In this document: in pieces, positions 19,790 through 57,151 of the stretch
How the letters are laid out: each line of letters starts with the position of its first letter
How positions within the stretch are numbered: position 1 is the stretch's first letter
NCBI GenBank assembly: GCA_944390905.1
Contig: CALXRR010000002.1
Location: 1 to 59,818 of the forward strand
Direction: 5' to 3'
DNA length: 59,818 bases
From: an uncultured Alphaproteobacteria bacterium
Lineage (GTDB): Bacteria > Pseudomonadota > Alphaproteobacteria > RF32 > CAG-239
Position numbers and translations under genes: made by a program
Notes under the pieces: model-generated
Databases searched by the model: none
What the model saw: only the letters and a program-made list of their open reading frames with translations
What the model was told of the DNA's origin: nothing

Positions 19790-19791
19790 AT

Positions 19792-20922: not shown

Positions 20923-20930
20923 CTTTCATA

Positions 20931-22625: not shown

Positions 22626-22630
22626 AGATG

Positions 22631-25370: not shown

Positions 25371-25395
25371 GTTTTTTGTTCCTTATATCAAGTAA

Positions 25396-27631: not shown

Positions 27632-27730
27632 CTTTACATTCCTTAAGCAATGTTTAATCATATATTTTTTTAGTTTAATAATACTTATTAGTGGTAAATA
27701 ATCAAGCTCGAGTCTTAACTTATTAACTAT

Positions 27731-30239: not shown

Positions 30240-30671
30240 ATGAATATTGTATTTAAGTCTCATAAATATCAACATTTATCCAAGCACCCTCTTATTGCTT
30301 TTTTGTCAGCTAAAGCAAAGCAAGGAAGTCTGTTTGGCTTCAGTCTGTTCCTTGCCTTACTTTGCCTGACAACAGATGCCGAGGCTGCTTTGTTTAGCCA
30401 ATTAACCCAAAGCGGCTCAACCATTTTTGAAGGCATGAAAGACATTATCTATGCCGTAGCCGGTTTTGGCATAGTCGGCGTAGCCATAGGCGCCTTTTTT
30501 GGCAACCTGAACTGGAAATGGCTATCGGCAATTATTATCGGACTAATGGTTATAGCCGGTACGGCGGGCATATTAATGTATATGACCGAAACCGAGGATT
30601 TAAGCTCACTATCCATAACCATCACGGACAGCCTGAAGAACGCGGCACCGCTTCCGCCCAAGAGCAAATAA
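30240..30671 (+). CDS. virB2: VirB2/TrbC-family T4SS pilin (paralog 2)
   Basis: It shares the core AGFGIVGVAIGAFFGNLNWKWLSAIIIGLMVIAG with paralog 1 and has a longer leader. Confidence 0.6.
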   Translation: MNIVFKSHKYQHLSKHPLIAFLSAKAKQGSLFGFSLFLALLCLTTDAEAALFSQLTQSGSTIFEGMKDIIYAVAGFGIVGVAIGAFFGNLNWKWLSAIIIGLMVIAGTAGILMYMTETEDLSSLSITITDSLKNAAPLPPKSK

Positions 30672-30708: not shown

Positions 30709-33252
30709 ATGTATCGTATGTTTATGATTGTTTTATTGCTTGCGCTCTCCTCATTTGGAACCGCAGAAGCAGCACTTGACGGCTTGGAAGATGGAAAAAC
30801 TTATACGCGAGCCGAGCTGGAAGAAATTGCCAGACAGCAAATGGGAAGCGGATATGAAGAATATCAAGCAGGTAAGGCTTCTATTCCTGAATTGCAAAAC
30901 CAAATTAAAACTGAACAACAAAATTATAAAAAGCAACAAGATGAATTGAATGAAAAGGTTCGTTCAGGAGAGATTACGGATAAGGAGTATAACCAGCAAA
31001 GTAAAGAATTGAAAAAGAGTAGTGAAGACCGAGTTGATGCTTTAGAAAAACAGATTAAAAATCAAGAAAAAGAAGTTAAAAATTTTGAAAAAGAATTTGA
31101 ACAAACCCAAAAAGACATAAATAAACAACTTGAAAAACAACAGAAAGCAGCCGAAAAAGCAGCGAAAGCCCAGCAAAAGCTTGAAGATAAGGCAACTAAA
31201 CAAAATGATAAATTGCAAGCGGCGGTGGCAGAGTGCCAAGCCATGAATGCATCTCCTGCCAAAAGACAAGAATGTGAAGAAAAAGCTCGTAAAAAATATG
31301 GATTAAGCGATGAACAGCAGCAGGCTTTAGATGAAAAAAATGCTCGTGAGCAAGCTGAGAAAGAAGCAGCCGAAAAAGCTAAACAACAAGCCGATGAAGA
31401 AGCCCAAAAAGCTAAACAACAAGCAGATGATGAGGCTTATTTAAAAAGCTTGATGGATTTGGAAGAGCCAGAGGAAGAAGATCCTTTGTTCAGTAGTGAA
31501 GCTAATGCAACCGGTAGCGGCTTGACCGGTGTTTGCGCTAATGCCGGCAATGTTTTTGAACAAATAGCCTGCAAAGCGATGATGTTTTTAATAGACTTAA
31601 GAGTCTTGGCCTATGTCCTTTCCGGATTCGGTATGGTTATGTTTGCTTGGGCTGCGATTTTTAACAAAATCAGTTGGAAACATTTTTCCCAAATCGCCAT
31701 AGGTTTGTTTATGCTCTCTATGATAGGTCCGTTTATTACTTATTTCACCGGAGACAGTACGGTTGAAGGTAATCTTGAATATGGTAATTATTTGGGAGGA
31801 AAATATAATCCGGTGTTAGGTGCCGGAGAAGCAACCTGTGCGGACGGTTCAAAAAATTGTTTGCCTGATACTGATATTGCAGCAACAGTCAATCTGCCGG
31901 AAATAGAAATAACGTCATCTAAAAAGAATTGGAGTATTGCAGATTTGAAAGGTTCAATCCAATCGGGGTTGAATCTGGTTCGTAGCGGTTATAACACTTA
32001 TCAAAATGCAAAACAGATGGCGACGGATTTTAAAGCAGAAACTCAGGCCATCGGTAATGCAATCAAGAACAGCGGCGGCGGGCTCGACGGAGTGTTAAAT
32101 GCAGCTTCTCAGGTAGCCGGAGCAGCAAATCGCTTGTCTTATGATATGCAGACCGGTATGAATGGCATTGCGCAGCAGGTTAGTAATGCGGCGAATGCGG
32201 CTCAGGATGTAACGGCAACCAATGCCGAGCGAGAGGCGCGGCAAAATATCAGAGTTAATGGTGATAATAATGGCGGAAATACGACCAATGCCGTTTCTGA
32301 ATGGCTGTCTGCATCAGGTACCGGAGGACAAGTCCTAGCGGATTTGGATAGGGATTTGAATACTGTCGGCAATGCCGCAGCAGGAGTAGGCAAAGCCACC
32401 ACCGCCGGCCACGAAGGACAAAAGATAGGCGGAGGCGGCAGCTTTGGTGATGTTGTCGGAGGTATTTTTGCCGCCGGTACTGCTATTGGCGAAGGAGCAG
32501 GAGTATATTATGATAGTCAAGAGGCGGCAGCCAAAGCTGTGCAACAAAGGCAAGAGATGGAGGCAATGAAGACATCTCCGGGGTTGACACCGGCACAGAG
32601 AGCCCAACAGCAAGTGCAAAACAAGCAACAAGCCGGCGGTACAACGGTTACAACCAATAACACTTCAACAACAAGTACACAGCCGACTTCAGGCATTACT
32701 AAAGAAGAAGCCTTAAAACAATCGGAACAAATAATAGCTAACTTTGCTAAACAGCAAGGACAATCTTCAACGGCAACAACAAAAAATAATGCAACGCAGA
32801 CCGCAAACGCCAATAAGGTAGCCACACAGTCGGCGTCTGTACAAAAGGCACAAAGTAATACAGAACAAAATTCCGCCGCACAGAATGTAGCTACTCAAAC
32901 AGCGGCTGTCGGAGCGGATACCATTTCTCGTTCAAATACAAGTACTAAAAAAGATACTGAAAGTACGGAAAATAAAACGGACAGCAGTAAAAAAACTTCA
33001 ACATCAGGGCTTGGTACAGCGGGAAATCCATATAATACTTTGAAAAATCCGGATGGTAGTTCTACAACCATAAATTCTGACGGAAGTGTTACGGTTACTT
33101 TTTCTGACGGACGTAAAGCTTCATATGCGGCGGATAACGAATATAGTAAAACAATTAGAGAATATCAGTCCGATAAGTGTAAATCTGATTGTAGAGACAC
33201 ATTTATGCAGGAAGACGGAGAAGCTCATAATGCATGTATTGCAAGGTGTTAA
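30709..33252 (+). CDS. 847-aa secreted protein with an internal VirB2-like two-helix module flanked by a coiled coil and a G/A/Q/T/S-rich low-complexity tail
   Basis: Signal peptide, then about 250 aa of K/E/Q coiled coil. Residues about 275-350 read SGFGMVMFAWAAIFNKISWKHFSQIAIGLFMLSMIG, clearly homologous to the two upstream VirB2 cores. About 490 aa of low-complexity sequence follow, ending in a Cys-rich tip. Confidence 0.7.
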   Translation: MYRMFMIVLLLALSSFGTAEAALDGLEDGKTYTRAELEEIARQQMGSGYEEYQAGKASIPELQNQIKTEQQNYKKQQDELNEKVRSGEITDKEYNQQSKELKKSSEDRVDALEKQIKNQEKEVKNFEKEFEQTQKDINKQLEKQQKAAEKAAKAQQKLEDKATKQNDKLQAAVAECQAMNASPAKRQECEEKARKKYGLSDEQQQALDEKNAREQAEKEAAEKAKQQADEEAQKAKQQADDEAYLKSLMDLEEPEEEDPLFSSEANATGSGLTGVCANAGNVFEQIACKAMMFLIDLRVLAYVLSGFGMVMFAWAAIFNKISWKHFSQIAIGLFMLSMIGPFITYFTGDSTVEGNLEYGNYLGGKYNPVLGAGEATCADGSKNCLPDTDIAATVNLPEIEITSSKKNWSIADLKGSIQSGLNLVRSGYNTYQNAKQMATDFKAETQAIGNAIKNSGGGLDGVLNAASQVAGAANRLSYDMQTGMNGIAQQVSNAANAAQDVTATNAEREARQNIRVNGDNNGGNTTNAVSEWLSASGTGGQVLADLDRDLNTVGNAAAGVGKATTAGHEGQKIGGGGSFGDVVGGIFAAGTAIGEGAGVYYDSQEAAAKAVQQRQEMEAMKTSPGLTPAQRAQQQVQNKQQAGGTTVTTNNTSTTSTQPTSGITKEEALKQSEQIIANFAKQQGQSSTATTKNNATQTANANKVATQSASVQKAQSNTEQNSAAQNVATQTAAVGADTISRSNTSTKKDTESTENKTDSSKKTSTSGLGTAGNPYNTLKNPDGSSTTINSDGSVTVTFSDGRKASYAADNEYSKTIREYQSDKCKSDCRDTFMQEDGEAHNACIARC

Positions 33253-33467
33253 TTAGTTTATGCCGGTATGAAGCTGACGACCCCAGTTTGAAAATCATCA
33301 TGGATAATGGCTTAATTAAAAAAGCCCAAAGCTACCAAACTGAATAATTAATGAAAACACCAAACATTAACCCCTTATTCATAAACTGTTGTTAATCTGA
33401 GTGAGAGAGGTTGCCAATCTCTCTGATTCGTTGTATAAGAACAATATTAGGCATAAGGAGCAGGTTC

Positions 33468-33758
33468 ATGCGAGCATTAATCTTAAAAGCAGTGGCCAAT
33501 CCTCCCAAGATTCTCTGGGGGCCTTTGTTGCCTGTTCTTATCAATCTATCAATACAGTTTCCGCTGATGTTTATGGCCATAGGAGCCTTCAATCTCAACC
33601 CGATAATTTTTTTGGCCAGCATAACCTTGGTTCATACCGGCATTGTCCTTTACGGAGCCAAGGAGCCTCATATTTCGACGATGATTCAGGCTTATGGCCA
33701 AACCTATCGCAAAACCAACAACCTTTATCCTGAAGGGGGGAATAAATTTGAGCCCTGA
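33468..33758 (+). CDS. virB3: VirB3-like T4SS inner-membrane protein
   Basis: RBS AAGGAG then ATG at 33468. 96 aa with one long hydrophobic stretch (WGPLLPVLINLSIQFPLMFMAIGAFNLNPIIFLASITLVHTGIVL). It lies directly upstream of and overlapping virB4. Confidence 0.55.
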   Translation: MRALILKAVANPPKILWGPLLPVLINLSIQFPLMFMAIGAFNLNPIIFLASITLVHTGIVLYGAKEPHISTMIQAYGQTYRKTNNLYPEGGNKFEP

Positions 33759-36180
33759 TTTTGATTTTTTCAGCACCTTTGTCCAAGGTTTAAGCTCGTT
33801 TGAGATTTTGGTAACCTTTATCGGCTTTGTCTCAGCGGCGGCTTTTGCCGGCTTCTGGGCCACTCGTTTAGGACGGGCGATTCTCCCTCAGCCTTATGAG
33901 TCCCGAGTTGCGGACTTCTTGCCGTTTACCAAATTAATGTCTGACGGCATCACCATCAGGTGTTACAACGGCTCTTTTGCTCGTGTTTTTAAGGTTGAAG
34001 GAGCTGATTTATCCTTTGTCACGGATGAAAAGAATTTAGCCATGGCTGAGGCTCGCAAATCATGGATAGACGGCATGTCCGATTTGCAAATCACCTGCCG
34101 CGTTATCACCATGCGCGACCGCATAGAGCTGGAGAACAGCGAAGGCGATTTTAACAACCAGCTTCTTGAACAAATCTCAAACACATGGAAAAACAGTCTG
34201 GATAGGGTTTATGCCAACACTCACTATATTATATTATCGGTTCCGGATAGACCGGACGCTTTAAAAGACTTAAACTATGCCTCGCAGTCGCTTTTGGCTA
34301 CCTTGAATGACTACGGCGTTAAACCTATGTATGAGACCGAAGACAGTCCCGCCAGCGAAAGCCCGCTGTCATTGTTTACGCGCATCTGCAGCCCGATAAG
34401 CCTGCCTGAGCCCAAAGTCCGAGGGGCAGAGGGTTATCAACTCAACGAGTTATTGACCGCCGACCATATCCATTTTACCGGAGAAAAAGGTATTATCCGC
34501 TTTTTTTCCGGAGACAAAGAGATGTACGCCATCACCATGGGGATTCGCACTTCCGGAGACTATATGGATGAGAGCATGGTTGCCACCATTCTGGCGATTG
34601 ATTGTGAATTAACACTTCTGCACAACATCAAGCCGATATTCAAGCCTCAAGCCCGCGCCCTATTGATGCAGCAGCGCAACATGGCTCGTATCACCAGTTT
34701 TTCGCCTGATGTTGTTAATCAATATGCCGAAGCTTTGTCTGCGATTGAAGAAAGTGATGCTGACTACCAGTCTTTGAGCGAATACGCCATGAGCATCATC
34801 ATCAAAGGCCAGAGCATTGAGGAGGTCGACTTCGGTGAAAGCGAAATCCAACGTATCTGCCGTTTGTTTGGTGTAACACCGGTCAGAGAAGGCTGGGTCA
34901 CTCAGGCCACTTTCTTCAACCAGTTTCCGACTTATGAGACCTATCCGCGAACTTATCGCTATTTATCAAGGGTCGTAGCCGCGGCCATTTCCTTTGACAA
35001 GCCATCTGAAGGCCTGCGTAAGAGCGACTGGGGCCCCGGAGCCATTACCATATTCAAAACCACGTCCGGTTCAGCCTACCGTTTTCAGTTCCATGTGTCT
35101 GAAGAAGATTCTGCGGTTGCTCACTGCTGCATAATCGGTCCTACCGGCCAAGGTAAAACCACCTTGCTGACCTTTTTAGCCGGCCAAGCCATGCGACACC
35201 CTGATTTAAGAGTATTCTTTTTTGACCGTCACCGTGGTGCCGAGATTTTCACCCGCGCGATAGGAGGCGCTTATGTCGGCTTTGACGGCGATGAACGAAC
35301 CGTATCGCTCAACCCGTTTGACTGCGCCGATACTCCGGTCAATCGTGCTTTTTTGCGCCAGTGGATGCGCTCTATTACCATGACGACTGATGCCCTGTCC
35401 GAAAAAGAAATCAGCCGTGCGGTTACCACTGCGTTTGAATATTTAAAGCCCGAGGAACGAATAATGAAAAACCTCTATAAGAGCTGTTTTTCCCCGACCG
35501 GCAACATGCGCCGCGAGCTTTTCCGCTGGGTCAATCCTGAACAATACGGCAATATTTTTAACGCCGATACCGATAGCTTGGACTTACGTCAAAAACGCTT
35601 TATGGCCTTTGACTTTACTCATATTTTTGAGGACGAGGCTCTAGCTCCGGCGGTTATCAGCTATATCATGCACCGTATCCAGTCCGAGACCGGCGAAACC
35701 GGCGTTCCGTCATTGATTATGATAGATGAAACCGCACCAATGCTCAAACACCCGATGTTCCGTGATTATTTCCGCATTGGCTTGCAAGAAGGCCGAAAAA
35801 AGCGCCAAGCTTATCTTTGCGCCTTTCAGCAGCCCAATATTGTTGATGAGCTGGGTGTTGGTGAGGTTATCCGCGGCCAATGCCAAACCGTCATCTTTTT
35901 CCGCAACCCGCAAGGCATGGTTGATGACTACGCCAACTGGAACTTGACCGACCGTGAGCTAGACTTTATTTTCGGCAAGAGCTACCGCGATTTTCCGTAT
36001 GCAATATTGCTTTCGCGTCCGGCCACGGGAGAGTCGGTAATTTTGGATGTTGACTTAAGCGGCCTCGGCCCCTACTTAAAGCTCTACAATTCCGGCCGTA
36101 AGAATGTCTTGCTGGTAGAAAAATTAATCAAAGAATATGGTGAAGACAACTTTGTTACCCAATACTTAAATATCGCGTAA
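33694..36180 (+). CDS. virB4: VirB4 T4SS ATPase
   Basis: 828 aa with Walker A IIGPTGQGKTT, Walker B SLIMIDETAP and the typical CagE/TrbE/VirB4 length. The start is ambiguous. ATG 33694 overlaps virB3 by 65 nt, and an in-frame TTG at about 33748 would overlap it by only about 11 nt. Confidence 0.85.
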   Translation: MAKPIAKPTTFILKGGINLSPDFDFFSTFVQGLSSFEILVTFIGFVSAAAFAGFWATRLGRAILPQPYESRVADFLPFTKLMSDGITIRCYNGSFARVFKVEGADLSFVTDEKNLAMAEARKSWIDGMSDLQITCRVITMRDRIELENSEGDFNNQLLEQISNTWKNSLDRVYANTHYIILSVPDRPDALKDLNYASQSLLATLNDYGVKPMYETEDSPASESPLSLFTRICSPISLPEPKVRGAEGYQLNELLTADHIHFTGEKGIIRFFSGDKEMYAITMGIRTSGDYMDESMVATILAIDCELTLLHNIKPIFKPQARALLMQQRNMARITSFSPDVVNQYAEALSAIEESDADYQSLSEYAMSIIIKGQSIEEVDFGESEIQRICRLFGVTPVREGWVTQATFFNQFPTYETYPRTYRYLSRVVAAAISFDKPSEGLRKSDWGPGAITIFKTTSGSAYRFQFHVSEEDSAVAHCCIIGPTGQGKTTLLTFLAGQAMRHPDLRVFFFDRHRGAEIFTRAIGGAYVGFDGDERTVSLNPFDCADTPVNRAFLRQWMRSITMTTDALSEKEISRAVTTAFEYLKPEERIMKNLYKSCFSPTGNMRRELFRWVNPEQYGNIFNADTDSLDLRQKRFMAFDFTHIFEDEALAPAVISYIMHRIQSETGETGVPSLIMIDETAPMLKHPMFRDYFRIGLQEGRKKRQAYLCAFQQPNIVDELGVGEVIRGQCQTVIFFRNPQGMVDDYANWNLTDRELDFIFGKSYRDFPYAILLSRPATGESVILDVDLSGLGPYLKLYNSGRKNVLLVEKLIKEYGEDNFVTQYLNIA

Positions 36181-36268
36181 AAGGGCAAAATTCACACTAT
36201 TGTAACATATTATATGCTATAATTATAATAAGAGTAAGAAGGTGTCTTTATAACGACGGGAGGCTTTA

Positions 36269-37801
36269 ATGATAAAGTTAAAACAATTTTTTTTATTAGG
36301 GATAAGCAGCAGCTTGTTGCTCTTGAGCACCAAGATTAGCCAAGCGTTTGTGATTCCGACTGTTGATGCCACCGCCATAGCCGAAGGAGTAAAGTCTAAT
36401 ATTGAGTTGGTCAAACAATCAGCCGTAGTTGCCGAGGCAACCTCCATTACCGGCGAGATAAATTCCGCCATAGGCAGTGCCAAGAGCACTATTTCGTCAC
36501 TAGGGCTTGAAGACGCCCAAAAAGCCGCCGAAAAAATCCAAAAAGAAAAAGAGAATTTAGAAAAAGCCAAATCCGAATACGATAAATATAAAGCCGAATA
36601 TGACGCCCAAAAGCAAAAGCTTGAAGAAGGCAAAGCCGCCTATGAAAAACATAAAGCCGAGATAGAACAAGGCATCTCAGACGCCCAAGAAATTAAGTCT
36701 GATATTAGCTCTACGATCAACTCTGTTCAACAACAAGCTCAGCAAGCGACCGATAAAGTATCATCATCAAGCCGCCAAGCTTTTGGCAGCGGTAACACCA
36801 CAACATCTGCGACAACACCTACGGTTAGCCAGACCCAGTCTGTTACAACGCCGCAGTCAACCCAAACTAGTACCGGCAATACCGCCGCTGCCGAGGCTCT
36901 GTCTGCGGCACAAGCTGAGATTTTAGAGCTCCATCAACAGCTGGCGCAAGCTCAGGCTCAAGCCCAAACGTCCGGTCAGACCGCGCCGGTGACTACAATC
37001 ACTAATGACACCACTCCCCAAGAGCTTGAAGCCGCCAAAGAAGAGATTGAGCGCTTAAAAGCCGAACTCGCCAAATATGAGGAGCAGTCAGCATCAACTC
37101 CGATATCAGCTCCGACCGAGCAGCCATCATCAAGCGGCTTCCGCAAGCGCCCCAATATTAATACCAATACGCAATATGAGCGCCAAAGTTATTTGGATAA
37201 TGAAGAATATGCAGTTGCTTCTATCTCTCGAGCCGAAGAGCTATTTTTTGCTCAGGCTACTGTTTCAGCTTCTGATGGTGGGGATAACTCCTTGATAGAT
37301 TTGCAAAATGTTCCGACCGGCACCAATGCCGCAACTGATGAGTTTATTGTATCGGATGATTTAGCGCGCTATTGCGGATTTAATGTCAATAATGTAGATG
37401 CCTCGATTCTCAAAGCATGCTTAGAGGATTTAATCGCCCATCGTTCGGCGGCTAATGCCCAAACCGCAGCCGAAGGCAACACCAAATATACCGACATTAT
37501 GCGAGATTCTGTCTCAAGCTTAGCCTCAGAAGCGATTGTCGCCAAGAATTTGGCCGCCAATTATCAAGACGAGGTCTTGGCCAAATTGACTGATGACTTA
37601 GGCAGTGCCTCTACCGTCCGTGATGACATAGCGGCCTTGTCCCAAACCAACAATCAAATCCAAGTTTTGCTGAATAATATTTTGAAGATTTACGCCAGCC
37701 AGCTTTATCTGGATTCGATGGATAAAATTGCGCGTTATAACTCCCGCATGATAAATCCCGAGGCCGAGACGGTTGTCAAACCGGAGAACACAACGGAGTA
37801 A
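36269..37801 (+). CDS. VirB5/TrbJ-like secreted protein, expanded (510 aa)
   Basis: Signal peptide, then the mature N-terminus FVIPTVDATAIAEGVKSNIELVKQ, which resembles the VirB5/TrbJ (I)PV.D......Q start. A helical/coiled-coil region and T/S/Q-rich linkers follow. It sits in the position after virB4. Confidence 0.45.
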   Translation: MIKLKQFFLLGISSSLLLLSTKISQAFVIPTVDATAIAEGVKSNIELVKQSAVVAEATSITGEINSAIGSAKSTISSLGLEDAQKAAEKIQKEKENLEKAKSEYDKYKAEYDAQKQKLEEGKAAYEKHKAEIEQGISDAQEIKSDISSTINSVQQQAQQATDKVSSSSRQAFGSGNTTTSATTPTVSQTQSVTTPQSTQTSTGNTAAAEALSAAQAEILELHQQLAQAQAQAQTSGQTAPVTTITNDTTPQELEAAKEEIERLKAELAKYEEQSASTPISAPTEQPSSSGFRKRPNINTNTQYERQSYLDNEEYAVASISRAEELFFAQATVSASDGGDNSLIDLQNVPTGTNAATDEFIVSDDLARYCGFNVNNVDASILKACLEDLIAHRSAANAQTAAEGNTKYTDIMRDSVSSLASEAIVAKNLAANYQDEVLAKLTDDLGSASTVRDDIAALSQTNNQIQVLLNNILKIYASQLYLDSMDKIARYNSRMINPEAETVVKPENTTE

Positions 37802-37806
37802 CCGCC

Positions 37807-38661
37807 ATGAAAATACGCCGTTTTTTGACATATGTTATAGCCTTTTTGCTAAGTATCGGCATATCTTTTCCGGCCTTGGCCGATAAAGAACACATCCAAA
37901 GTGTTTTGAAAAAAGTTGATAATGCTGAGAAAAAGGCCATGAACGTCCTTGAAGACGGACAACGCATCTATCGTGTCGGACAAAAAGGTTTCAATGGCGT
38001 CAAAAAATCAGTCAACAGCGCCATGAACGTCGGCAAGGCCATCGCCAGCGGAGATATTGAGGGCGCTTTTTCCGCCGCAACTGATTTTGCAGATTCTACG
38101 GATATCCCCGGACTTTCGGAAAACTTGGAAAATATTCAAACCAATGTCGATGAAGCCGGCAAATTAACCGCCTCGGCCAGTGCTCTGGCCTCTAAAGCCA
38201 ACGGTCTGATAAAAACCAGCGCAGACTTGCTGCCCAATACGGTGCCTAATTATTTGAATGATACGACAGACATCAAACAAACCGAGGCCGATGTTGAAAA
38301 AGAATATACCAGCGTTTATGGAAACAATCCGGATATAGATGTTTTTACCGAACAGCAAGATAAACTCATGAGTGCTCAGCGCGAGAACATCGCCAACCTT
38401 TATGCCAAGGCCTTGGCTGTTCGCGTTGACATAGCGGATGAAAAAGCCGCCACACCGGTTGAAATCGATTCCACCACGGCTCGTTCCTTAATTAATGCCA
38501 CGCGAGATACAGCAATGAGGACTGCGGTTCGTCTCAAGCGTATTTATGAGCTTGAAGCCGCGATGTATGAATATAACACCACGGCACAAACCCAAAGATA
38601 TATTATCGTAAATCAGGGAGATTCATCTGCCGCATCAGATACATCGGGAGAACAGCAATGA
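37807..38661 (+). CDS. Secreted hypothetical T4SS-locus protein
   Basis: Signal peptide ..SFPALA. 284 aa, predicted helical. It is tightly packed in the operon, with a 5-nt gap upstream and an ATGA overlap downstream. Confidence 0.5.
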   Translation: MKIRRFLTYVIAFLLSIGISFPALADKEHIQSVLKKVDNAEKKAMNVLEDGQRIYRVGQKGFNGVKKSVNSAMNVGKAIASGDIEGAFSAATDFADSTDIPGLSENLENIQTNVDEAGKLTASASALASKANGLIKTSADLLPNTVPNYLNDTTDIKQTEADVEKEYTSVYGNNPDIDVFTEQQDKLMSAQRENIANLYAKALAVRVDIADEKAATPVEIDSTTARSLINATRDTAMRTAVRLKRIYELEAAMYEYNTTAQTQRYIIVNQGDSSAASDTSGEQQ

Positions 38662-39854
38662 AACTAAGATTATTCCTGATAGCTCTGAGTCTTTGTACTT
38701 TTATCAGCTCGCCGACCGAAGCTTTTTTGAAGTTTGATGCCGGAGCTTCCGCCAGCAAAGCCGTTACTACCGCCAACAATTTTTTGGAAAGCGCCAAGAA
38801 AAAGATGGATGAATCCGTAGCTCTGCAAACAGTAATCACCTACGGCAAAGGTAGTATCGAGACCGCCAAACAAATCCAAGCCATCAAGTCTGAAGCCGAA
38901 AGCAAGATAGAAGACTTTAAGGAAGACCCCTTGCAGGCGGGGCTGGATTTAGCCGATGAAGGCTTGTCAGATTTATCAAGCAATCCGCAGTTTAATGAGC
39001 TTACTTCCAAGATTGAAGAAAAAGCCTCCAAATCGCAGACCGTGCTAGACCTCAAGCGCGAGAAAGAAAAGCTGGAGCAAGAGCTTGAAGACAAGCTCTC
39101 GGTAGAAAAGACCACCCTTGAAGGCAAGATAGCCGTTTATGAAAAAAACAACGCGACCTTAGCCCAACAAAAGGAGGACGACCCCGCCAATGCTGATAGC
39201 TACCAACAACAAATTGAGGCTAATCAGGCGGAGATAAACAAGCTCCAAAGCCAATATGATGCCAATACCCAAACCTTAAAAGCCGAGAGCCTGCCCAAAA
39301 TCACCTCTCTCAGCACTCAAATGGACAGCCTCAATAAAGAGCTGCAAGACTACGCCGCCAAGCAAAAAGCCAAGTTTGAAGACGAGCTCGCTGAAAAATT
39401 GATGACTCACGACAGCCAAGGCAGTCTTGAAGAAACTACCGAGAAAAACTTTCTGACCGAAGGCAATGTTGAAAACAGCGAAGCCATCATCAAGCAGAAG
39501 GCCTATCGTAATTATGTCGCAGGCCAAGACACGCTTAATGCCTTTGCGGTAGCGGTTACCACGCAGGCAGAGTTAAACGATGACAATATTTTGACCGAGA
39601 AAATTGCCGACCGTACCGGTGCCGTAGACGGTTCGGTAGCTGCTATTAATATGGATACGCAGGTAAAAGTCCAAAATATTAAAGCGTTGGGTAAAGTTAT
39701 TGAAATGATGATTCAAGACTTAAAGATGGAAACCTCGACCGAAATGGCTCAAAGCGAAATTAATAGTATAACCAAAGATGATAACATCGCCAATTTTAGT
39801 TTTGATAAATATGTTTCCGAGGCTGATAAAACTTCATCACAGGAGGGAGAGTAA
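38658..39854 (+). CDS. Secreted coiled-coil T4SS-locus protein
   Basis: Signal peptide ..SSPTEA, then long K/E/Q/L heptad-like stretches. It is translationally coupled on both sides. Confidence 0.5.
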   Translation: MKLRLFLIALSLCTFISSPTEAFLKFDAGASASKAVTTANNFLESAKKKMDESVALQTVITYGKGSIETAKQIQAIKSEAESKIEDFKEDPLQAGLDLADEGLSDLSSNPQFNELTSKIEEKASKSQTVLDLKREKEKLEQELEDKLSVEKTTLEGKIAVYEKNNATLAQQKEDDPANADSYQQQIEANQAEINKLQSQYDANTQTLKAESLPKITSLSTQMDSLNKELQDYAAKQKAKFEDELAEKLMTHDSQGSLEETTEKNFLTEGNVENSEAIIKQKAYRNYVAGQDTLNAFAVAVTTQAELNDDNILTEKIADRTGAVDGSVAAINMDTQVKVQNIKALGKVIEMMIQDLKMETSTEMAQSEINSITKDDNIANFSFDKYVSEADKTSSQEGE

Positions 39855-39855
39855 C

Positions 39856-42800
39856 ATGACTAAGCGCAATATTTTATGCTTTTTGCTCGGTACTTTCTTG
39901 TCCTTTGGAGGCATGGGTTCGGCGCAGGCTTTGTTTTTTGGCGTAGATGTCCCCACCATTGATGGTGTTACCGACGCTCTTTTCGGTACTGAGATTGTCG
40001 GTTCTACCATGAGCAATGTCAATACCGGCCTTATTATGGAGGTTCAGGGCAATATCCAAGATATCAAAGCCAAGTATAAAGAATATGCCAACGATTATGA
40101 AGGTGTTATGTTAAAGGACAAAGCCCCGCTTGAAGGAACCCGCACGATTACTTCATCAGAAAAATCCGACATTAAAGACCCGAGCACCACCAAGCGTGCG
40201 GTATATGATCTGTTTTTAGCGGCTCCGTCCAATGATTTTTATGAACAGAGAGACTATCAAGCACAGTCGATTCGTTTTTATCAAGATACTTTGATTGAGG
40301 TCAATACCGCGGTCAACCGACTTGAACAAGAATATAATGATAACCTAAAAGAAAAAATCGCCAATATGTCGGATGATTTGTTGAGCGGCGAAAATGGAGC
40401 CGAAGTCGGCGATGACGAAAATGGCTCATGGAAAAACAACTATAATGCCTATAAAACTTTTGACGATTTGGTACAGATTTGGGAGGAACTGGTAGCCCTA
40501 AAAGCCCAATTAACGGTAGCCAAAGCCATCAAAGATGACATCGCTCCAGCCAAGCCGGCCGAAAGTGATGCTCCATTAAAATCAGGAGATAATACCCAAA
40601 GCTTAACCACCAGCCAAGCCGATGGTGTATCATCAACCAAGCCTCAGCACTATGCCTTTAACAGCCCGCTGCATACCGAAACCTTAGCCTTTGCCCAGCA
40701 AAGCACCGGCACCTATCGCTATAATCCGGAGACTGACAGCAGCATCACTTTTGTTGATGCCCCGACGCCTGATATCGATTCTCCTTTTGCCGGCAGCCGT
40801 AATGAACTCAAAGATTTGGAGCGCCTTAACCCAATATATAACACCGCCGTCAAGGGAATGAAAATTCATAATCTCATCCAGTCGCTCCCTTCCAAGAAGG
40901 CGCTTTTTGACCAATATCATCAATACGAAAAATTGCATGAAAAAGCGGTTGCCAAGGTTAAAGAGTCAGACAATTGCGCTCTTCGTTATTTGAGCAAATA
41001 TTACCAAAACCCCGAGCAAACATGGTACGGAGCTTATATCGGCGAACAAGTAACCGACTATGATTTGCGCAAAGGCGTTTCCGGCTGGGCTATCAGCAGT
41101 TATGACACCGCCAAGGCAGCTTTGAGCAATCCGATAGATAGCGAAGATTTGGCTGAAATGGAGCTTGATGCAAGCCTTGATGGCACCAAATATGAAAATA
41201 TAGCCTCTCAAAAATCCTATGTTGAAGACCAATCCGCAAGCTTTGACGGCTATAAAGAGCAAAGCCAATATGACACCAATGAAGCCAATACCCGCATTGA
41301 GGAGCTTTTGCCCTGGAACATCGGAGCAGAAGCCGCCAAAGAGCTTGCCGATGACCAATACTCCGGCAGCCCGCAATGGGGTACCCCTAAGACGCTTTTT
41401 CCGGTCTGGAACGACCAAAAATCATTTTATGGCCAATACCTTAACGGCAAATACGCTAATATGAAAAATTATTTGAGCCGATTCGATTTTCGCAATCGCA
41501 TAGTGTTAGTTGCACAAATCCTCAATTCACTGTCTGATGCGCGTCTGGAGCTCAAGCAATATGCCGCTAAAGTGCTTAGTTCAATGGCTTCCGGCACTTC
41601 AGATATTGTCGAATATCCGAGCGATGGCAACCCCGACATCACCTCCGCCGCCGAGGAGAAAAAAGCCGCTATTGAAACCTTGCAAAAAAATTTAGAGGCC
41701 GCACTGCAAGCTCAGGAACAATCTCGAGCTGCGTTGGTAAAACAACTTGACAGCGCCCAAACCCGCCAAGATGAACTCAACCGCCAAATCAACCGTGCCC
41801 AAAACGCTAATATGAATGAGGACGCCAAGCTTCCCGAAGATGTTGACGTCGCCTCTCTTCAGCAAGAAGTCGATGCCCAAGACAAGACCATTGAAGACTT
41901 GCAAAGCCAAATTGATAAAATTGATGAGAAAATCTCCAACCTCCGAAAAGCTTATGTGCAAAAAGAGCAGAATATTGAGCAGCAATACGCTTCATTTGTG
42001 GTCAATATCAAAGATCCCGAGCTTAAAAAGCTGATCGTAGGAGCTTTGTCCGGAGCTGACATTCCCTCCGGCATGACAGCGGACCTTTTGGCTCAGGCAC
42101 AAGGCTATGTCGCCGGACTGGTCTCCACCTCGGAGGGCATTTTCTCTGATGTAAAGGATTATGCGCAAGAGGCTGTCGACCAAGCTTTGCAAGATATTTA
42201 CGGCTATGGTGATATTATCTACTTCCCCTCCGGCGAAAGCCAAATATTAGCCCGCCATATTCAGCTGATTAATGAGTTAAAACAGCTTCCGTTTGCCAAG
42301 CTTAGCCAGTCTAAGCCTTCGGTTAATGCCATAGCCTCTTCGGCAGAAGCTCTAAATTTGGTTACCACGGCATTCCAAAGCGCGCTGGTTGATGTTATCT
42401 GTCTCAATCAGCTTTGTGAAAATCCCGATAGTGACTATTTTGTAGGAGCTTCAGCACGCTTCCGTGACTTTAGTGCGCCCAAGGGGGCTCCTGCCACCAC
42501 CACCGCTCCTGTGCGAGAAATCGTCCATTTGGATTATATAGATTATGAAAACATTCCCCAGTTATCAGACGGCAGCGTGGCTAAGGCTGATATTTTGAAA
42601 TACGGTCAGCCGGTGCCCGAAGTCTGGAAATATATGCTAAAAAATCCGGCCTATGTTGAAAAAGACATAGACTTAGAGAGCGCCTTAAACCTCGGTGGTG
42701 AAGATCGCAACTTTATGCGAGGAGGCTTCTTGCCTTGCCGAGACGATAGCATGCTTATAGATGCCGTTGACGATAAAGCCGGCTATTATGTAGTCCCTGA

Positions 42801-43602
42801 TACTCACAGCTCTTATTTAAGCTGCCTGTTTCTAAAAGTTTCTTCAGGCTTGCTGAGTGGGCGCAAAGTCACCAACTCTGAAGCCGAAAAAGACCAAACC
42901 GTCAGCGCTGAGAGCAAAAGTAAAATCTCCAACGATTCGTTTAGCGAGCTTGGCACATTCTTTAAATATGAAAATGACAAACTCTATTTTCGTGAGATGC
43001 CAGCCAAAGCCTATAAGCGCTTAGCCGAAATCCACGGAGATACCACCACGGAAGAATATAAGGAGAATGTAGAGGATAATATCTATAAAAAAGCGGCCTT
43101 CTCCGATAACCAAATCGGCAACTTTTTGCGCTTTGTTGATATGGAACAAGAATATCGTCAAATTTTAGAGGAGTTGACCACCAAGATGGAACAAACCAAA
43201 GCCGACCTTTTTGAAGAGTTTAAAGAGGCAGGCTTTACCCCATCTGATGACTTTGATTTAAGCAATCCGGAGGATTACCGGCAAGCCCGCGATACTCTTG
43301 ATGCGCAAAAGAACAACCAAATCAACGCCGCGCAAAATATGTTACAGACATTAACTTCACCGGAGAATGACGTTGTCAAAGACCGCCGTACCGGAGTTGA
43401 AAACATGATAAATGCCTTGATAAAAGACGAAAATGAGCTTATTAATCTAAGTGAAGATACCGTTCCGGATAGTACTTTTGATGAGCGCTTAAAAACCGAA
43501 GAAGCCAATAATGCCATCGCTGATAAATATCAAGCCGAGGCAGATAAAGCTTTTGAAGACGCACTCAACAGTTTTCCGGCTCCGTATTGCGCCGCATATT
43601 AA
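39856..43602 (+). CDS. 1248-aa secreted T4SS-locus protein with VirB5-like N-terminal motif and central coiled coil
   Basis: RBS AGGAGGGAG then ATG at 39856, giving the signal peptide MTKRNILCFLLGTFLSFGGMGSAQA. The mature N-terminus LFFGVDVPTIDGVTDALFG echoes the VIPTVDATAI of 36269. No internal TM helices are seen. Confidence 0.55.
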   Translation: MTKRNILCFLLGTFLSFGGMGSAQALFFGVDVPTIDGVTDALFGTEIVGSTMSNVNTGLIMEVQGNIQDIKAKYKEYANDYEGVMLKDKAPLEGTRTITSSEKSDIKDPSTTKRAVYDLFLAAPSNDFYEQRDYQAQSIRFYQDTLIEVNTAVNRLEQEYNDNLKEKIANMSDDLLSGENGAEVGDDENGSWKNNYNAYKTFDDLVQIWEELVALKAQLTVAKAIKDDIAPAKPAESDAPLKSGDNTQSLTTSQADGVSSTKPQHYAFNSPLHTETLAFAQQSTGTYRYNPETDSSITFVDAPTPDIDSPFAGSRNELKDLERLNPIYNTAVKGMKIHNLIQSLPSKKALFDQYHQYEKLHEKAVAKVKESDNCALRYLSKYYQNPEQTWYGAYIGEQVTDYDLRKGVSGWAISSYDTAKAALSNPIDSEDLAEMELDASLDGTKYENIASQKSYVEDQSASFDGYKEQSQYDTNEANTRIEELLPWNIGAEAAKELADDQYSGSPQWGTPKTLFPVWNDQKSFYGQYLNGKYANMKNYLSRFDFRNRIVLVAQILNSLSDARLELKQYAAKVLSSMASGTSDIVEYPSDGNPDITSAAEEKKAAIETLQKNLEAALQAQEQSRAALVKQLDSAQTRQDELNRQINRAQNANMNEDAKLPEDVDVASLQQEVDAQDKTIEDLQSQIDKIDEKISNLRKAYVQKEQNIEQQYASFVVNIKDPELKKLIVGALSGADIPSGMTADLLAQAQGYVAGLVSTSEGIFSDVKDYAQEAVDQALQDIYGYGDIIYFPSGESQILARHIQLINELKQLPFAKLSQSKPSVNAIASSAEALNLVTTAFQSALVDVICLNQLCENPDSDYFVGASARFRDFSAPKGAPATTTAPVREIVHLDYIDYENIPQLSDGSVAKADILKYGQPVPEVWKYMLKNPAYVEKDIDLESALNLGGEDRNFMRGGFLPCRDDSMLIDAVDDKAGYYVVPDTHSSYLSCLFLKVSSGLLSGRKVTNSEAEKDQTVSAESKSKISNDSFSELGTFFKYENDKLYFREMPAKAYKRLAEIHGDTTTEEYKENVEDNIYKKAAFSDNQIGNFLRFVDMEQEYRQILEELTTKMEQTKADLFEEFKEAGFTPSDDFDLSNPEDYRQARDTLDAQKNNQINAAQNMLQTLTSPENDVVKDRRTGVENMINALIKDENELINLSEDTVPDSTFDERLKTEEANNAIADKYQAEADKAFEDALNSFPAPYCAAY

Positions 43603-44483: not shown

Positions 44484-44672
44484 ATGTCTAAAAAATTTCT
44501 TATACTTTTTATGGTGCTGTTTTTAACGGCCTGCGGAATTTTTGGCTCATATTATGAAGCCGAACCAATCGGTATCGGTAAAGGCGTTGATGAGCTTAAG
44601 CTTTCCCCTTGTGCCTGCCTGCAACTAGATTTGCCTAAAGATCTTCCGGACTGGTTTATTGAAACAATCTAA
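44484..44672 (+). CDS. Small lipoprotein, VirB7-like by size and position
   Basis: 62 aa with lipobox L-T-A-C in MSKKFLILFMVLFLTACG. It lies between the virB8 paralogs and upstream of virB9. Confidence 0.45.
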   Translation: MSKKFLILFMVLFLTACGIFGSYYEAEPIGIGKGVDELKLSPCACLQLDLPKDLPDWFIETI

Positions 44673-44693: not shown

Positions 44694-45419
44694 ATGGTTG
44701 ATAAGCTTGAAGAAAGAGGCGATAAACAAAAGCTGCTTGGGCGAGCGGAGCGTTCCGGCGTAAATCAGCGCAAAGATAAAGATGTTTTTGTCGGCAATGT
44801 CGGAGAAAAAAGATACCTTTGGACCGCGCGAGCTTTTGCAATTATTACGGCAATCAGTCTTTGCTGTAATATTATCTTGATTCTGGCCATATCGCAAGTT
44901 ATCCCTCTTTACCGCATCGAGCCGTTTTTGTTGACCTTCCAAAATAAAGAAGATCAGGTTTATAATATCCAGCTTGTCCAAGGGCTGGAGGACGAAAAGG
45001 CTATTACCGAAGTTTTTGTTAGAGAATATGTTTTATTAAGAAGCTCCTTTGATAGAGATATTCCTGAGATGGAGTCTCGCTGGATGCCTGGCGGTCAAGT
45101 TCAAGAAATGTCTTCCCAAACAGTTTATGAAGACTTCATTCGCAATACTGCAAACCGAGCCTTGGAGCTGATTCGCACCCGCAATCTCCAGCGTACGGTT
45201 CGTATCTTAACAGTCAATGAGCTCGGGCGTGGACTTTGGCAGGTTGAGTATGAAACTCAAGATATGTATCCGGATTCGGCAGTGCCGGATGTCAATTATT
45301 GGACGGCCAATATGCGCATAACTTATCGCCCCAAGACCGTAAAATATGACGAACGCTTAAAAAATCCGATAGGATTTACGGTTGTACAGTATTCTTTAAC
45401 TTATAATAAGGTTAAATAG
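44694..45419 (+). CDS. virB8: VirB8-family protein (paralog 2)
   Basis: Same architecture as 43615..44364, sharing IEPFLLTF, VFVREYVLLRSSF and NPIGFTVVQYS. Confidence 0.65.
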   Translation: MVDKLEERGDKQKLLGRAERSGVNQRKDKDVFVGNVGEKRYLWTARAFAIITAISLCCNIILILAISQVIPLYRIEPFLLTFQNKEDQVYNIQLVQGLEDEKAITEVFVREYVLLRSSFDRDIPEMESRWMPGGQVQEMSSQTVYEDFIRNTANRALELIRTRNLQRTVRILTVNELGRGLWQVEYETQDMYPDSAVPDVNYWTANMRITYRPKTVKYDERLKNPIGFTVVQYSLTYNKVK

Positions 45420-45448: not shown

Positions 45449-47080
45449 ATGATATCAAAGTTATCAAAAATATTTGTTCTGAGTCTTGTCGCCAGCGTTT
45501 TTGCCGGAGCTTCATCAGCACAGGTCACGATGAACAATCTTGATCAAAACGCCGACCAAAGTATGGGGCAATATATGCCGATGAATATGAATTATGCCGG
45601 CTTTAGCTCTCTTGGCATGACACAAGCTGCTTGGCTTGACCCATTGCAAAACTTGGGTGAAGGACAAAGCCGTCCGGCTTATTCCAAATATTATTGGAGT
45701 CCGGATTTGGTTTTGCCGGTTCGCTTGAGAGAAGGAATGATTACTTTGATAAACTTCCCTGATTGGGAACTCATTGAAGATATGTACATCGGAGATAATG
45801 CAACTTTTGACGGACAAATAAGCGGGCCTAATACCATTTTGCTTTACCCTCGTAAGGGCGCCAACGTCGGAGTCGATACAAACATCATTCTGTTTGGCCG
45901 CTCCGGCAACCGCTATGTGTTTTACGCCAAGAGTGAAGGCGTTAATACTGAAAGATTGACCAACTCCATTATAGATATAGATGTCGTTGAAGGCGCTAAC
46001 GGAGGGTCTTATTCCGGCGGCGGTAGTGGCAATCGTTCTTTTTCAGGGGGTATAGGTAAAGGTCGGGGTTCATCAGGATATTCAGCAGCATCAAGTTATA
46101 CCAAGCGCAATCAGCGCAACAACTGGATAGAGGATATTCCGGTTGACCCCAGCAAATTCCGTTTTGATATTGAAATTTATGTGCCAAACCCTGATGATGT
46201 AGTTATTGCGCCGGAGCGCGTCTGGAGAGACGATATCTTCACCTATATTGACTTAGGCGAAAAAGCCTTAAACATGACCCAGCGTCCGATAGTCACCATG
46301 ATAGTTGAGCGCTCTGAAGTTCCGGTCGGCTTCCGTACCAAAGGCCCTAACAACCGCTTGATAATAGTTGAAGGTGTCGGCGATATGGTTTTGCGTAATG
46401 GCAAAAGAATAGTCTGCCTTAAGCTTCGTCGTTCTGATGATGCCGGCATGGAAAATGTCAGCTATGCTGATGACTTGTTCTCTAACGAGTGGTATGTCCA
46501 AGCTCCGGTTCCCGGCCGTAATAGTGCCGAAATCGGTGACGGAAACGTTTTGCAAGGATTCGGCCCCAAATATCCTGAATACTCCGGCGGCATGCCTGGT
46601 AATTATGGCTATCCTCCGGCCGGCATGGGCGGCTCTGGAGCCATGAGCGGAGGTATGAACCCTTCAGGAATGAACGGGGCCGGTAGTGAATTTGGTAATG
46701 GCTATGACGGATTCGATTATTCGCAAATGCAGCATATCTCCAATACCGAGAACTACCCCTCTAACAGCAACGCCATTCGTGAGGCCATGGGCTATGGCAA
46801 AGGCATGAACGGCGCCGGCAGCGGTGACATCTCCATAGAACTAGGTGTAGATGCTCAAGTCAGCAACTTGGAGGCTCTGTGGTCTGATTTAAGCAAAAAA
46901 TATCCGGATATGCTGTCTCAGTATGAACCCTATTACTCCGTTGACACTCCGGCCGACGGCCATGGCAAAGAGCTTTTCCACCTCCGCATCGGCCCCATAA
47001 ATAATCTTGAAGACGGAGATGTTATCTGTAATCAACTTGGGCGGAACGGCGTGTTCTGCAGTGTGGTTAGAACGCAATGA
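45449..47080 (+). CDS. virB9: VirB9/TrbG-family core protein with Gly-rich inserts and a C-terminal SPOR-like domain
   Basis: Signal peptide, then an N-terminal VirB9 domain (LPVRLREGMITLINFP....IEDMYIGD...F......NTILLYP......DTNIILFG.SGNRYVFY). The C-terminal VirB9 domain follows (FRFDIEIYVP...IAPERVWRDDIFTYIDLG......RPIV...V). Residues about 462-543 read ISIELG....VSNLEALWSDL.KKYP.........Y.........G.ELFHLRIGPI....D.D..C..L...G..C.VV, which is SPOR-like. Confidence 0.7.
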   Translation: MISKLSKIFVLSLVASVFAGASSAQVTMNNLDQNADQSMGQYMPMNMNYAGFSSLGMTQAAWLDPLQNLGEGQSRPAYSKYYWSPDLVLPVRLREGMITLINFPDWELIEDMYIGDNATFDGQISGPNTILLYPRKGANVGVDTNIILFGRSGNRYVFYAKSEGVNTERLTNSIIDIDVVEGANGGSYSGGGSGNRSFSGGIGKGRGSSGYSAASSYTKRNQRNNWIEDIPVDPSKFRFDIEIYVPNPDDVVIAPERVWRDDIFTYIDLGEKALNMTQRPIVTMIVERSEVPVGFRTKGPNNRLIIVEGVGDMVLRNGKRIVCLKLRRSDDAGMENVSYADDLFSNEWYVQAPVPGRNSAEIGDGNVLQGFGPKYPEYSGGMPGNYGYPPAGMGGSGAMSGGMNPSGMNGAGSEFGNGYDGFDYSQMQHISNTENYPSNSNAIREAMGYGKGMNGAGSGDISIELGVDAQVSNLEALWSDLSKKYPDMLSQYEPYYSVDTPADGHGKELFHLRIGPINNLEDGDVICNQLGRNGVFCSVVRTQ

Positions 47081-50508: not shown

Positions 50509-50509
50509 G

Positions 50510-55947: not shown

Positions 55948-55949
55948 AA

Positions 55950-57092: not shown

Positions 57093-57151
57093 ACCTTCTG
57101 TTTCTGACAAAGGTGCGTTGTTTTAACTATAAAAACAATGGAGCTTTTGTT

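Follow-up and report, generated by a model that had tools for sequence, protein, structure and literature searches.

Putative VirB5 derivatives fill the position behind virB4 in a chromosomal type IV secretion locus of uncultured gut alphaproteobacteria

The window considered here is a 59.8-kb stretch of the genome of an uncultured alphaproteobacterium (contig CALXRR010000002.1) that contains the genes of a type IV secretion system (T4SS). The interval between the gene of the VirB4 ATPase and the first of two virB8 paralogues, referred to below as the slot, is occupied by four open reading frames (ORF1 to ORF4), and profile comparisons support the assignment of all four predicted products as VirB5 derivatives. 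None of them is a polytopic protein, and VirB6 is probably encoded elsewhere in the genome. The explanation that we favour, and consider reasonably likely, is a chromosomally domesticated T4SS, comparable to the Trw system of Bartonella, with a fast-diverging, lineage-specific expansion of VirB5 and with VirB6 located away from the locus. The window is chromosomal DNA, in which the markers cmk, rpsA, a porin gene, a gene for a dapE-like M20 peptidase and a tRNA-Arg gene were identified. The slot and the genes that delimit it are as follows.

33694-36180, + strand: VirB4 ATPase, the anchor upstream of the slot (PF03135, E = 4e-14; TIGR00929, E = 9e-111)
36269-37801, + strand: ORF1, 510 amino acids (aa)
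37807-38661, + strand: ORF2, 284 aa
38658-39854, + strand: ORF3, 398 aa
39856-43602, + strand: ORF4, 1248 aa
43615-44364, + strand: VirB8 paralogue a, which closes the slot (PF04335, E = 9.7e-10)

ORF1 begins 88 nucleotides (nt) after virB4, ORF1 and ORF2 are separated by 5 nt, ORF2 and ORF3 overlap by 4 nt, and gaps of 1 nt and 12 nt follow ORF3 and ORF4, respectively. The initial annotation of this DNA had described four tightly packed genes of 510, 284, 398 and 1248 aa behind virB4, and its coordinates, lengths and spacing agree with those found here. The longest reading frame of ORF4 begins at position 39778 (1274 aa), while the ATG at 39856, which comes after GGAGGGAG, gives the product of 1248 aa; a proper signal peptide and agreement with the orthologues mark this ATG as the predicted real start. 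A promoter-like site lies in the gap between virB4 and ORF1 (36200-36229, + strand; TTGTAA, an 18-nt spacer and TATAAT, 10/12 matches) and could serve as a separate transcription start for ORF1-4; promoter and terminator scans of the region gave counts that were not above chance.

Sec signal peptides were assigned to all four products by eye from the sequence: MIKLKQFFLLGISSSLLLLSTKISQA in ORF1 (cleavage before F), MKIRRFLTYVIAFLLSIGISFPALA in ORF2 (before D), MKLRLFLIALSLCTFISSPTEA in ORF3 (before F) and MTKRNILCFLLGTFLSFGGMGSAQA in ORF4 (before L). Membrane helices were scanned for by Kyte-Doolittle hydropathy over 19 residues. Beyond the signal peptide, the highest values were 0.74, 0.61 and 0.55 for ORF1, ORF2 and ORF3, respectively, and 1.59 for ORF4 (aa 832-850), a borderline peak located within a confidently modelled helical domain. 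The scan revealed no polytopic protein among ORF1-4; the VirB6 of a Paracaedimonas plasmid, used as a positive control, scored six segments in the identical scan. Both the signal peptide on each protein and the lack of internal transmembrane helices, as claimed in the initial annotation, are thus borne out by sequence reading and by the hydropathy scan. Its description of the proteins as largely coiled-coil holds for their helical nature, since the AlphaFold2 models of ORF1 and ORF4 consist mostly of long helices, with the amendment that ORF4 carries a small beta subdomain besides.

The VirB4 protein of the window was scanned against 185,579 species genomes, which yielded 327 stretches encoding a relative. 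The best 80 loci were analysed (VirB4 identity 77-95%), and all counts of related loci given below refer to these best 80 of the 327 VirB4-bearing stretches, some of which end inside the slot. The 80 loci originate from metagenome-assembled genomes of the human, chicken, deer and mouse gut, and their records are labelled as uncultured Alphaproteobacteria, “Azospirillum sp.” gut genomes, Proteobacteria bacterium CAG:495 and Candidatus Scatocola. The nearest VirB4 proteins of plasmids are those of Microvirga VF16 pMVF16-3 (38% identity), the Erythrobacter aureus YH-07 plasmid (36%) and Sphingosinicella sp. BN140058 p1 (36%). The VirB4 of the Paracaedimonas plasmid is 31% identical to that of the window, and a canonical six-helix VirB6 is present there.

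VirB5 is a minor pilin, usually of about 220-250 aa, that caps the T4SS stalk and the pilus tip; we take 1R8I to be the structure of a minor pilin of this VirB5/TraC type. The protein encoded after VirB4 on the E. aureus plasmid, 40 sequences from among its relatives and the VirB5 of the Microvirga plasmid were aligned as a VirB5 reference (A4, 42 sequences in all). The E. aureus member matches PF07996 at E = 6.8e-7, above the gathering score, many other members of A4 carry this domain, and the A4 profile matches TrwJ, the VirB5 of R388 (7O3V), at E = 3e-4. By these sequence matches, A4 is a genuine VirB5 clade.

Profiles of the ORF families, prepared from alignments of the 80 loci, were compared with A4 profile to profile. 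The full-length ORF2 family matched A4 almost end to end (96.8%, E = 2.9e-10, 189 columns), and its mature chain matched at 93.5% (score 50.6; shuffled-control maximum 14.7). The N-terminus of ORF1 gave 96.7% with the signal peptide and 88.4% (score 35.8) without it, the control maximum being 0.5%. Residues 226-339 of the mature ORF3 chain matched residues 103-217 of VirB5 (86.8%, score 47; control maximum 15), while the ORF3 N-terminus gave 91.6% with the signal peptide and 9.9% without it. For the N-terminal module of ORF4 the corresponding values were 88% and 19% (score 29). The four families are also linked to one another: the C-terminus of ORF1 (395-494) to that of ORF2 (96% probability), ORF2 to ORF3 (96%), and aa 87-228 of ORF4 to residues 141-262 of ORF2 (97.6%). 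The strong matches to VirB5 scored 36-73, whereas 15 column-shuffled profiles per comparison gave at most 0.5% and a score of at most 16.3, and reversed profiles at most 1.6%. The alignments to VirB5 are colinear, each terminus being matched to its counterpart.

The start of the mature chain provides a second line of evidence. It reads GIPVIDPxAIA in the VirB5 clade, (L/W/I)P(T/V)xDxxAI in ORF1 orthologues, xPTxD in ORF4 orthologues and K(F/I)D in those of ORF3. In the window itself, ORF1 (FVIPTVD) and ORF4 (VDVPTID) carry the IPVxD-type motif, ORF3 (FLKFD) resembles it loosely, and it is absent from ORF2, whose mature chain starts with DKEH. Eight residues are invariant in 50 ORF1 homologues (A26, P30, T31, D33, A36, I37, E39 and G40), and the invariant motif residues are located exactly at the signal-peptide cleavage site. 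The N-terminal motif that the initial annotation had likened to VirB5/TrbJ is therefore real, being the start of the VirB5 N-terminal helix, and its proposal of expanded VirB5 proteins, made for two of the four, gains support from the profile matches and extends to all of them. Many ORF1 homologues bear the precomputed Pfam labels PF28019 and PF28175, on which literature searches found nothing.

On the basis of these comparisons, ORF2 appears to be a moderately enlarged VirB5, which among the four comes closest to VirB5 in both size and coverage. ORF1 and ORF3 appear to be VirB5 ends with long helical or low-complexity inserts between them. ORF1 is composed of the signal peptide, a VirB5-type N-terminal helix (FVIPTVDATAIAEG), a coiled-coil/low-complexity insert and a helical C-terminal domain common to ORF2, and ORF3 is a secreted, helical protein whose C-terminal region is VirB5-like and whose N-terminus matches VirB5 more weakly. 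In ORF4, a VirB5-like module (about aa 27-230) would be joined to an extension of some 1000 aa, conserved and mostly helical, that ends in PYCAAY. The genes share with VirB5/TraC/TrwJ/TrbJ the position directly after virB4, seen in the window and in the 80 related loci, the Sec signal peptide, (I/L)P(V/T)xD at the mature start, and a helical C-terminal region with homology at the profile level. They differ from these proteins in size (284-1248 aa versus about 220-250 aa), in number (four paralogues, and 4-6 in relatives), in the inserts of ORF1 and ORF3 and the extension of ORF4, and in giving no match to PF07996.

The slots of the plasmid relatives contain a normal-size VirB5 and a secreted protein of 428-492 aa. 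The N-terminal part (about 225 aa) of the latter is a VirB5 module (97.7%, E = 1.7e-12), and its true start lies upstream of the annotated one, which supplies the signal peptide. Since a VirB5 and an extended VirB5 are thus found together on these plasmids, such a pair is older than the gut lineage. The window shares with the Microvirga, E. aureus and Sphingosinicella plasmids the gene order VirB2, VirB3, VirB4, VirB5-type, VirB7, VirB8, VirB9, VirB10, VirB11 and a VirB7 lipoprotein motif, PIGIG..L.SPCAC.QL. In contrast to the window, those three plasmids carry a MobA/MobL relaxase and VirD4 adjoining the cluster, while the system of the window lies on the chromosome and comprises four VirB5-type genes, two VirB8, an apparent VirB2 fusion and a VirB10 expanded by beta-flower repeats.

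In the 80 related loci the slot contains 4-6 genes, each encoding a protein with only an N-terminal hydrophobic segment, and the number varies by duplication of ORF1-like and ORF2-like genes. No + strand ORF with at least four hydrophobic segments was found downstream of VirB4 in any of them (80/80). Divergence was expressed as the median identity of the best tblastn segment over the 80 loci, in which loci ending within the slot explain some of the missing detections.

VirB4: median identity 80%, detected in 80/80
VirB3: median identity 65%, detected in 79/80
VirB8a: median identity 57%, detected in 66/80
VirB8b: median identity 62%, detected in 60/80
ORF1: median identity 33%, detected in 51/80
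ORF2: median identity 31%, detected in 33/80
ORF3: median identity 29%, detected in 42/80
ORF4: median identity 29%, detected in 74/80

ORF1-4 thus diverge far faster than the core of the machine, a pattern expected of exposed, interaction-facing parts. A search of 1.84 billion cluster representatives with the C-terminal half of ORF4 gave only 205 relatives; those of full length are about 1200-1850 aa long and match at their own C-terminus, and the others are shorter fragments. As these relatives are few, and either of the same architecture or fragmentary, the ORF4 family seems to be confined to the gut lineage. The AlphaFold2 model of ORF4 (predicted local distance difference test, pLDDT, 75.7; predicted template modelling score, pTM, 0.63) is good from residue 290 onward. 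No Foldseek match at E <0.001 was obtained for it in PDB or BFVD, the best ones having E = 0.08 and 0.0066, respectively, both with TM-scores <0.1.

VirB6 was sought in the window and in its relatives. Pfam and hydropathy scans of the larger ORFs across the 59.8 kb revealed no TrbL/VirB6, VirD4, soluble lytic transglycosylase (SLT)/VirB1 or relaxase; PF04610 had no match in the window ORFs scanned, no polytopic ORF is present in the T4SS cluster of the window, and no VirD4 was found 3′ of VirB11 within it. The statement of the initial annotation that these four components are missing is true for the window. On the plasmids, the slots of E. aureus and Sphingosinicella contain no VirB6, and that of Microvirga also has a 228-aa protein with about four hydrophobic segments. 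Away from the main cluster, Sphingosinicella p1 encodes a protein of 441 aa (WP_129392706.1) in which six hydrophobic segments were counted; the cluster gene closest to it, VirD4, is about 17 kb away. The protein matches PF04610 at E = 4.2e-5 (23.8 bits, slightly under the gathering score of 25.9), and its gene is preceded by two small genes and has an SLT transglycosylase gene nearby. The E. aureus plasmid has a homologue (WP_115418074.1; 46% identity) at a distance of about 19 kb from its cluster; it bears the annotation “type IV secretion system protein” and has the same pair of small genes upstream of it. This detached unit on two plasmids implies that VirB6 has left the operon in this T4SS clade.

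Other genes of the system are also unlinked in part of the lineage. In two of the related loci, L073 (2958-10071) and L057 (3377-10059), no VirB2 genes are present upstream of VirB3-VirB4, which directly follow nusA-infB-rbfA in L073 and adjoin leuS, a thioredoxin-reductase-like gene and HicB in L057; T4SS genes are therefore scattered in some of these genomes. With VirB6 detached in the relatives and VirB2 unlinked in some species, relocation is the best reading of the absence of VirB6 from the window, and the gene is probably encoded elsewhere in the genome. The initial annotation had left two alternatives, VirB6 encoded elsewhere or a machine working without it; the detached plasmid VirB6 favours the former, and the gene itself was not found in the DNA searched.

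Some candidate readings were set aside in these searches. Sphingomonadales plasmids were first suspected to be devoid of any VirB6, which was overturned by the scan of the Sphingosinicella plasmid, complete except for about 2.8 kb. A tblastn search of plasmids with the VirB6 of Paracaedimonas was too insensitive. Hydrophobic + strand ORFs situated just after VirD4 on the plasmids were dismissed as antisense artefacts: on the opposite strand, the annotated ORFs share 46% identity from plasmid to plasmid (E = 1e-102) and have a higher GC content at third codon positions. Many minus-strand hydrophobic ORFs in the 80 loci overlap T4SS genes of the + strand and were taken as a group to be antisense artefacts.

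In the explanation that we favour, the ancestor would have been a conjugative system that already had a pair of VirB5 paralogues in its slot, one with an extension. The relaxase and VirD4 would have been lost from the locus, and the system would have become a fixed chromosomal organelle inherited throughout the lineage. Its pilus-associated parts would have multiplied, giving three VirB2-type, four to six VirB5-type and two VirB8 genes, its outer parts would have been enlarged with beta-flower repeats, and the VirB6 slot would have been emptied by relocation of the gene to a small detached operon. Each of ORF1-4 would be exported by Sec and docked in the stalk or at the tip through its VirB5-type N- and/or C-terminal helices. 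The inserts and extensions may be exposed on the cell exterior, forming alternative or composite tips that serve adhesion or the recognition of a target, and could there bind the surfaces of host or neighbouring cells. We infer the tip location and the adhesive role of ORF1-4 from the biology of VirB5, the fast divergence and the analogy to Trw.

A number of observations weigh against this explanation. PF07996, the TIGR VirB5/TrbJ models and NCBIfam models give no match to ORF1-4, and PF07996 is not among the top 25 families listed for 63 ORF2-family and 50 ORF1-family members. Pfam and NCBIfam scans of ORF1-4 and of members of the ORF1 and ORF2 families returned only coiled-coil noise, and PDB sequence searches with the ORF2, ORF4 and ORF1 N-terminus profiles found nothing meaningful, the last of them without a match to TrwJ. 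The direct link between ORF4 and VirB5 is weak (19-28% without the signal peptide) and depends on transitivity via ORF2. A helix-rich, biased composition may inflate profile scores, although the controls argue otherwise here. The ORF1 model is poor (pLDDT 52; 75-83 for the C-terminal domain alone), the VirB5-like modules are modelled at low confidence, with pLDDT <50 for ORF4 residues 1-75, and Foldseek searches with the ORF1 and ORF4 models gave no significant match to VirB5, TraC or CagL. The divergence figures are identities and not ratios of nonsynonymous to synonymous substitution rates (dN/dS), and so do not separate relaxed constraint from diversifying selection. Finally, VirB6 was not found within 33 kb 5′ or 23 kb 3′ of the VirB4 of the window, nor within 10 kb either side of VirB4 in the 80 species, and tblastn with the VirB6 proteins of Sphingosinicella, E. 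aureus and Paracaedimonas detected nothing in the window or the 80 loci.

The last of these findings leads to the best surviving alternative, which we judge possible but on the whole unlikely: a machine without polytopic VirB6, in which a Sec-exported, VirB5-derived protein forms a periplasmic stalk platform, with ORF4 as the likeliest and ORF3 as an alternative candidate. It is consistent with the lack of a polytopic ORF in the slot, in the window and around VirB4 in the related species, and with the lack of any homologue there of the VirB6 operon of the relatives. ORF4 is, of the four, the one detected by tblastn in most loci, with many invariant residues and a confident, novel helical model. 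Published work describes the VirB6 of R388 as a mostly periplasmic pentamer, anchored by only two helices, that carries the VirB5 pentamer (PMC12857230), and since the bulk of the protein is periplasmic, a soluble periplasmic substitute is conceivable. However, the closest relatives do have VirB6, merely detached; VirB6 is highly conserved among all T4SSs (PMC12857230); and the ORF4 model has no Foldseek similarity to TrwI/VirB6. As other T4SS genes are unlinked in some species of the lineage, absence from the locus is weak evidence. No report of a natural T4SS lacking VirB6 was found in literature searches. Replacement of VirB6 by an ORF4-type VirB5 derivative, which would make this the first natural Gram-negative T4SS without VirB6, is in our estimation unlikely.

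It is decidedly improbable that ORF1-4 are cargo, i.e. Sec-exported toxins or adhesins released from the periplasm by the T4SS and not structural parts of it. The model for such a system is Ptl, which lacks VirD4 and VirB5 and releases pertussis toxin from the periplasm, this Sec-exported toxin having been proposed as a structural analogue of VirB5 (PMC12857230). The signal peptides on all four proteins and a T4SS operon without VirD4 in the window would agree with this, and fast evolution also suits secreted effectors. Nevertheless, the homology to VirB5 spans the parts that dock VirB5 in the machine, conjugative plasmid relatives with VirD4 and a relaxase hold two VirB5 paralogues in the equivalent slot, and no enzymatic or toxin domain was found by sequence or fold search. 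Very improbable, finally, is the view of ORF1-4 as generic, lineage-specific coiled-coil fillers whose likeness to VirB5 is an artefact of helical composition: the coiled-coil noise of the database searches and the uninformative structure searches speak for it, but the shuffled and reversed controls fall far short of the real scores, the alignments are colinear, invariant motif residues sit exactly at the cleavage site, and the position between VirB4 and VirB7/VirB8 is kept in 80 species.

Among characterized systems, the domesticated T4SS that we favour can be compared most directly with Trw of Bartonella, which has no coupling protein, secretes no known substrate, and carries tandemly duplicated VirB2 and VirB5 variants that are under diversifying selection and engaged in host-specific adhesion (PMC2610397). 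Both systems are conjugation-derived and possess multiple variant copies of VirB2 and VirB5, and VirD4 is missing from the window. The units amplified in Trw are trwJ-trwI-trwH (VirB5, VirB6 and VirB7), so VirB6 is present and multiplied there, and the Trw VirB5 copies keep their normal size, unlike the slot paralogues described here, which are old, highly divergent and structurally enlarged. The rvh system of Rickettsiales (see PMC2653234 and PMC7648143) resembles the present one in being chromosomal and vertically inherited, in having duplicated, missing and scattered components, and in a multi-gene paralogue array straight after virB4. The array itself is the reverse: rvh has no known VirB5 and 4-5 extended VirB6 paralogues, while here the slot holds 4-6 VirB5-type genes and no VirB6.

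The genes of CagL, CagI and CagH of Helicobacter are transcribed together; their products are helical, exported by Sec, related to a VirB5-like adhesin and required for the pilus to form. The slot proteins matched this Cag module neither in sequence nor in fold, CagL (3zcj) appearing in Foldseek only at E = 4.6, and the Cag system differs from the window in having CagW as VirB6.

The remaining genes of the T4SS and the adjacent pilus operon are listed below.

17381-29545, − strand: type IVb pilus operon (PilS/bundlin pilins, T2SSF, T2SSE, PilO, secretin, TcpQ)
29825-30202, + strand: VirB2 pilin gene a (PF04956, E = 5.6e-9)
30240-30671, + strand: VirB2 pilin gene b (PF04956, E = 1.2e-6)
30709-33252, + strand: 847-aa secreted protein with a VirB2 hairpin (aa 296-350; BLASTP)
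33411-33758, + strand: VirB3-like small membrane protein (2-3 overlapping hydrophobic segments; no Pfam match)
44484-44672, + strand: VirB7-like lipoprotein, 62 aa, lipobox LTAC
44694-45419, + strand: VirB8 paralogue b (PF04335, E = 1.5e-22)
45449-47080, + strand: VirB9 (PF03524, E = 1.4e-11) with a C-terminal SPOR-like domain (PF05036, E = 0.0015, a weak match under the Pfam gathering score)
47077-50508, + strand: 1143-aa beta-flower repeat protein with one N-terminal membrane helix (PF21785)
50510-54964, + strand: 1484-aa VirB10 with beta-flower repeats (PF21785) and a TrbI domain (PF03743, E = 1.5e-32)
54976-55947, + strand: VirB11 ATPase, the last T4SS gene (TIGR02788, E = 2e-41)

The VirB7-like lipoprotein gene had been overlooked in the initial annotation of the T4SS; on the plasmids of Microvirga and E. 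aureus, the lipoproteins encoded at this position have the motif of its product. A 96-aa counterpart of the VirB3-like protein is kept ahead of VirB4 in the relatives. The 847-aa protein is 38% identical to VirB2a over the two-helix core (E = 3e-12), and with orthologues of 245-2058 aa it looks like a giant pilin fusion. The 1143-aa beta-flower protein ends one base before the 1484-aa VirB10, in a different frame, and both contain 5-fold repeats (PF21785, E = 5e-66 and 4.5e-60 for the pair, 47077-54964); this may be a pair of genes or one giant VirB10 that was split.

The type IVb pilus operon, which resembles that of the thin pilus of plasmid R64, and the T4SS stand back to back, and in most relatives the first gene of the pilus operon is kept beside the T4SS. 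In two loci (L026 and L059) the pilus operon is co-oriented and runs directly into VirB3-VirB4, and Sphingosinicella p1 also has type IV pilus genes (L085 31749-35266). A cluster encoding a Ser/Thr protein kinase with three C-terminal hydrophobic segments, a PP2C phosphatase and a von Willebrand factor A (VWA)-domain protein (13163-16063, − strand) sits between the housekeeping genes and the pilus operon.

On the other side, VirB11 is followed by a 1.1-kb non-coding stretch (55942-57028) with direct repeats of 60 nt (two copies, 97% identity) and 29-33 nt (two to three copies), in which no Rfam family was matched. In a sibling assembly (L093) an IS110 transposase is inserted in the stretch after VirB11, and sibling contigs with an identical VirB11 all break soon after an isochorismatase gene. 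Just 3′ of the T4SS, a cysteine-rich secreted protein is encoded (57068-57889, + strand), with a weak Lcl C-terminal domain (PF07603, E = 3e-4).

The “plasmids” of Sphingosinicella (p1) and E. aureus, of 350-410 kb, have replisome and nucleotide-metabolism genes of their own. Those seen on Sphingosinicella p1 are dnaE, dnaN, ligA, recA, ssb, tmk and the genes for RNase HII and ribonucleotide reductase, besides many for methyltransferases, and the E. aureus plasmid stretches examined contain those for ribonucleotide reductase, RecJ, topoisomerase III and a DnaB-like helicase. MOB-suite types these plasmids as non-mobilizable or mobilizable, probably because the divergent T4SS goes unrecognised.

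Literature searches, in which the gut lineage was taken to be the GTDB order RF32, revealed no paper on this T4SS; the proteins belong to a known family, VirB5, but their expansion and architecture are unusual and the lineage is unstudied. Among the essential parts of T4SSs, VirB5 is understood least: it starts pilus growth on VirB6 and sits at the tip that touches the target. The lineage described here illustrates the plasticity of this protein, with 4-6 paralogues, inserts, and a 1248-aa member with a confident, unmatched fold, and it offers natural VirB5 variants for telling docking parts from display surfaces. A VirB6 gene placed away from the main operon in a T4SS clade affects tools that call such systems incomplete or their plasmids “non-mobilizable”. 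If VirB6 were truly absent, the model of stalk assembly would need revision, and such an absence would be remarkable. For the organisms themselves, a system kept in several hundred species-level genomes of gut alphaproteobacteria and linked to a type IVb pilus is a candidate organelle of host contact or cell contact in a little-known constituent of human and animal microbiota.

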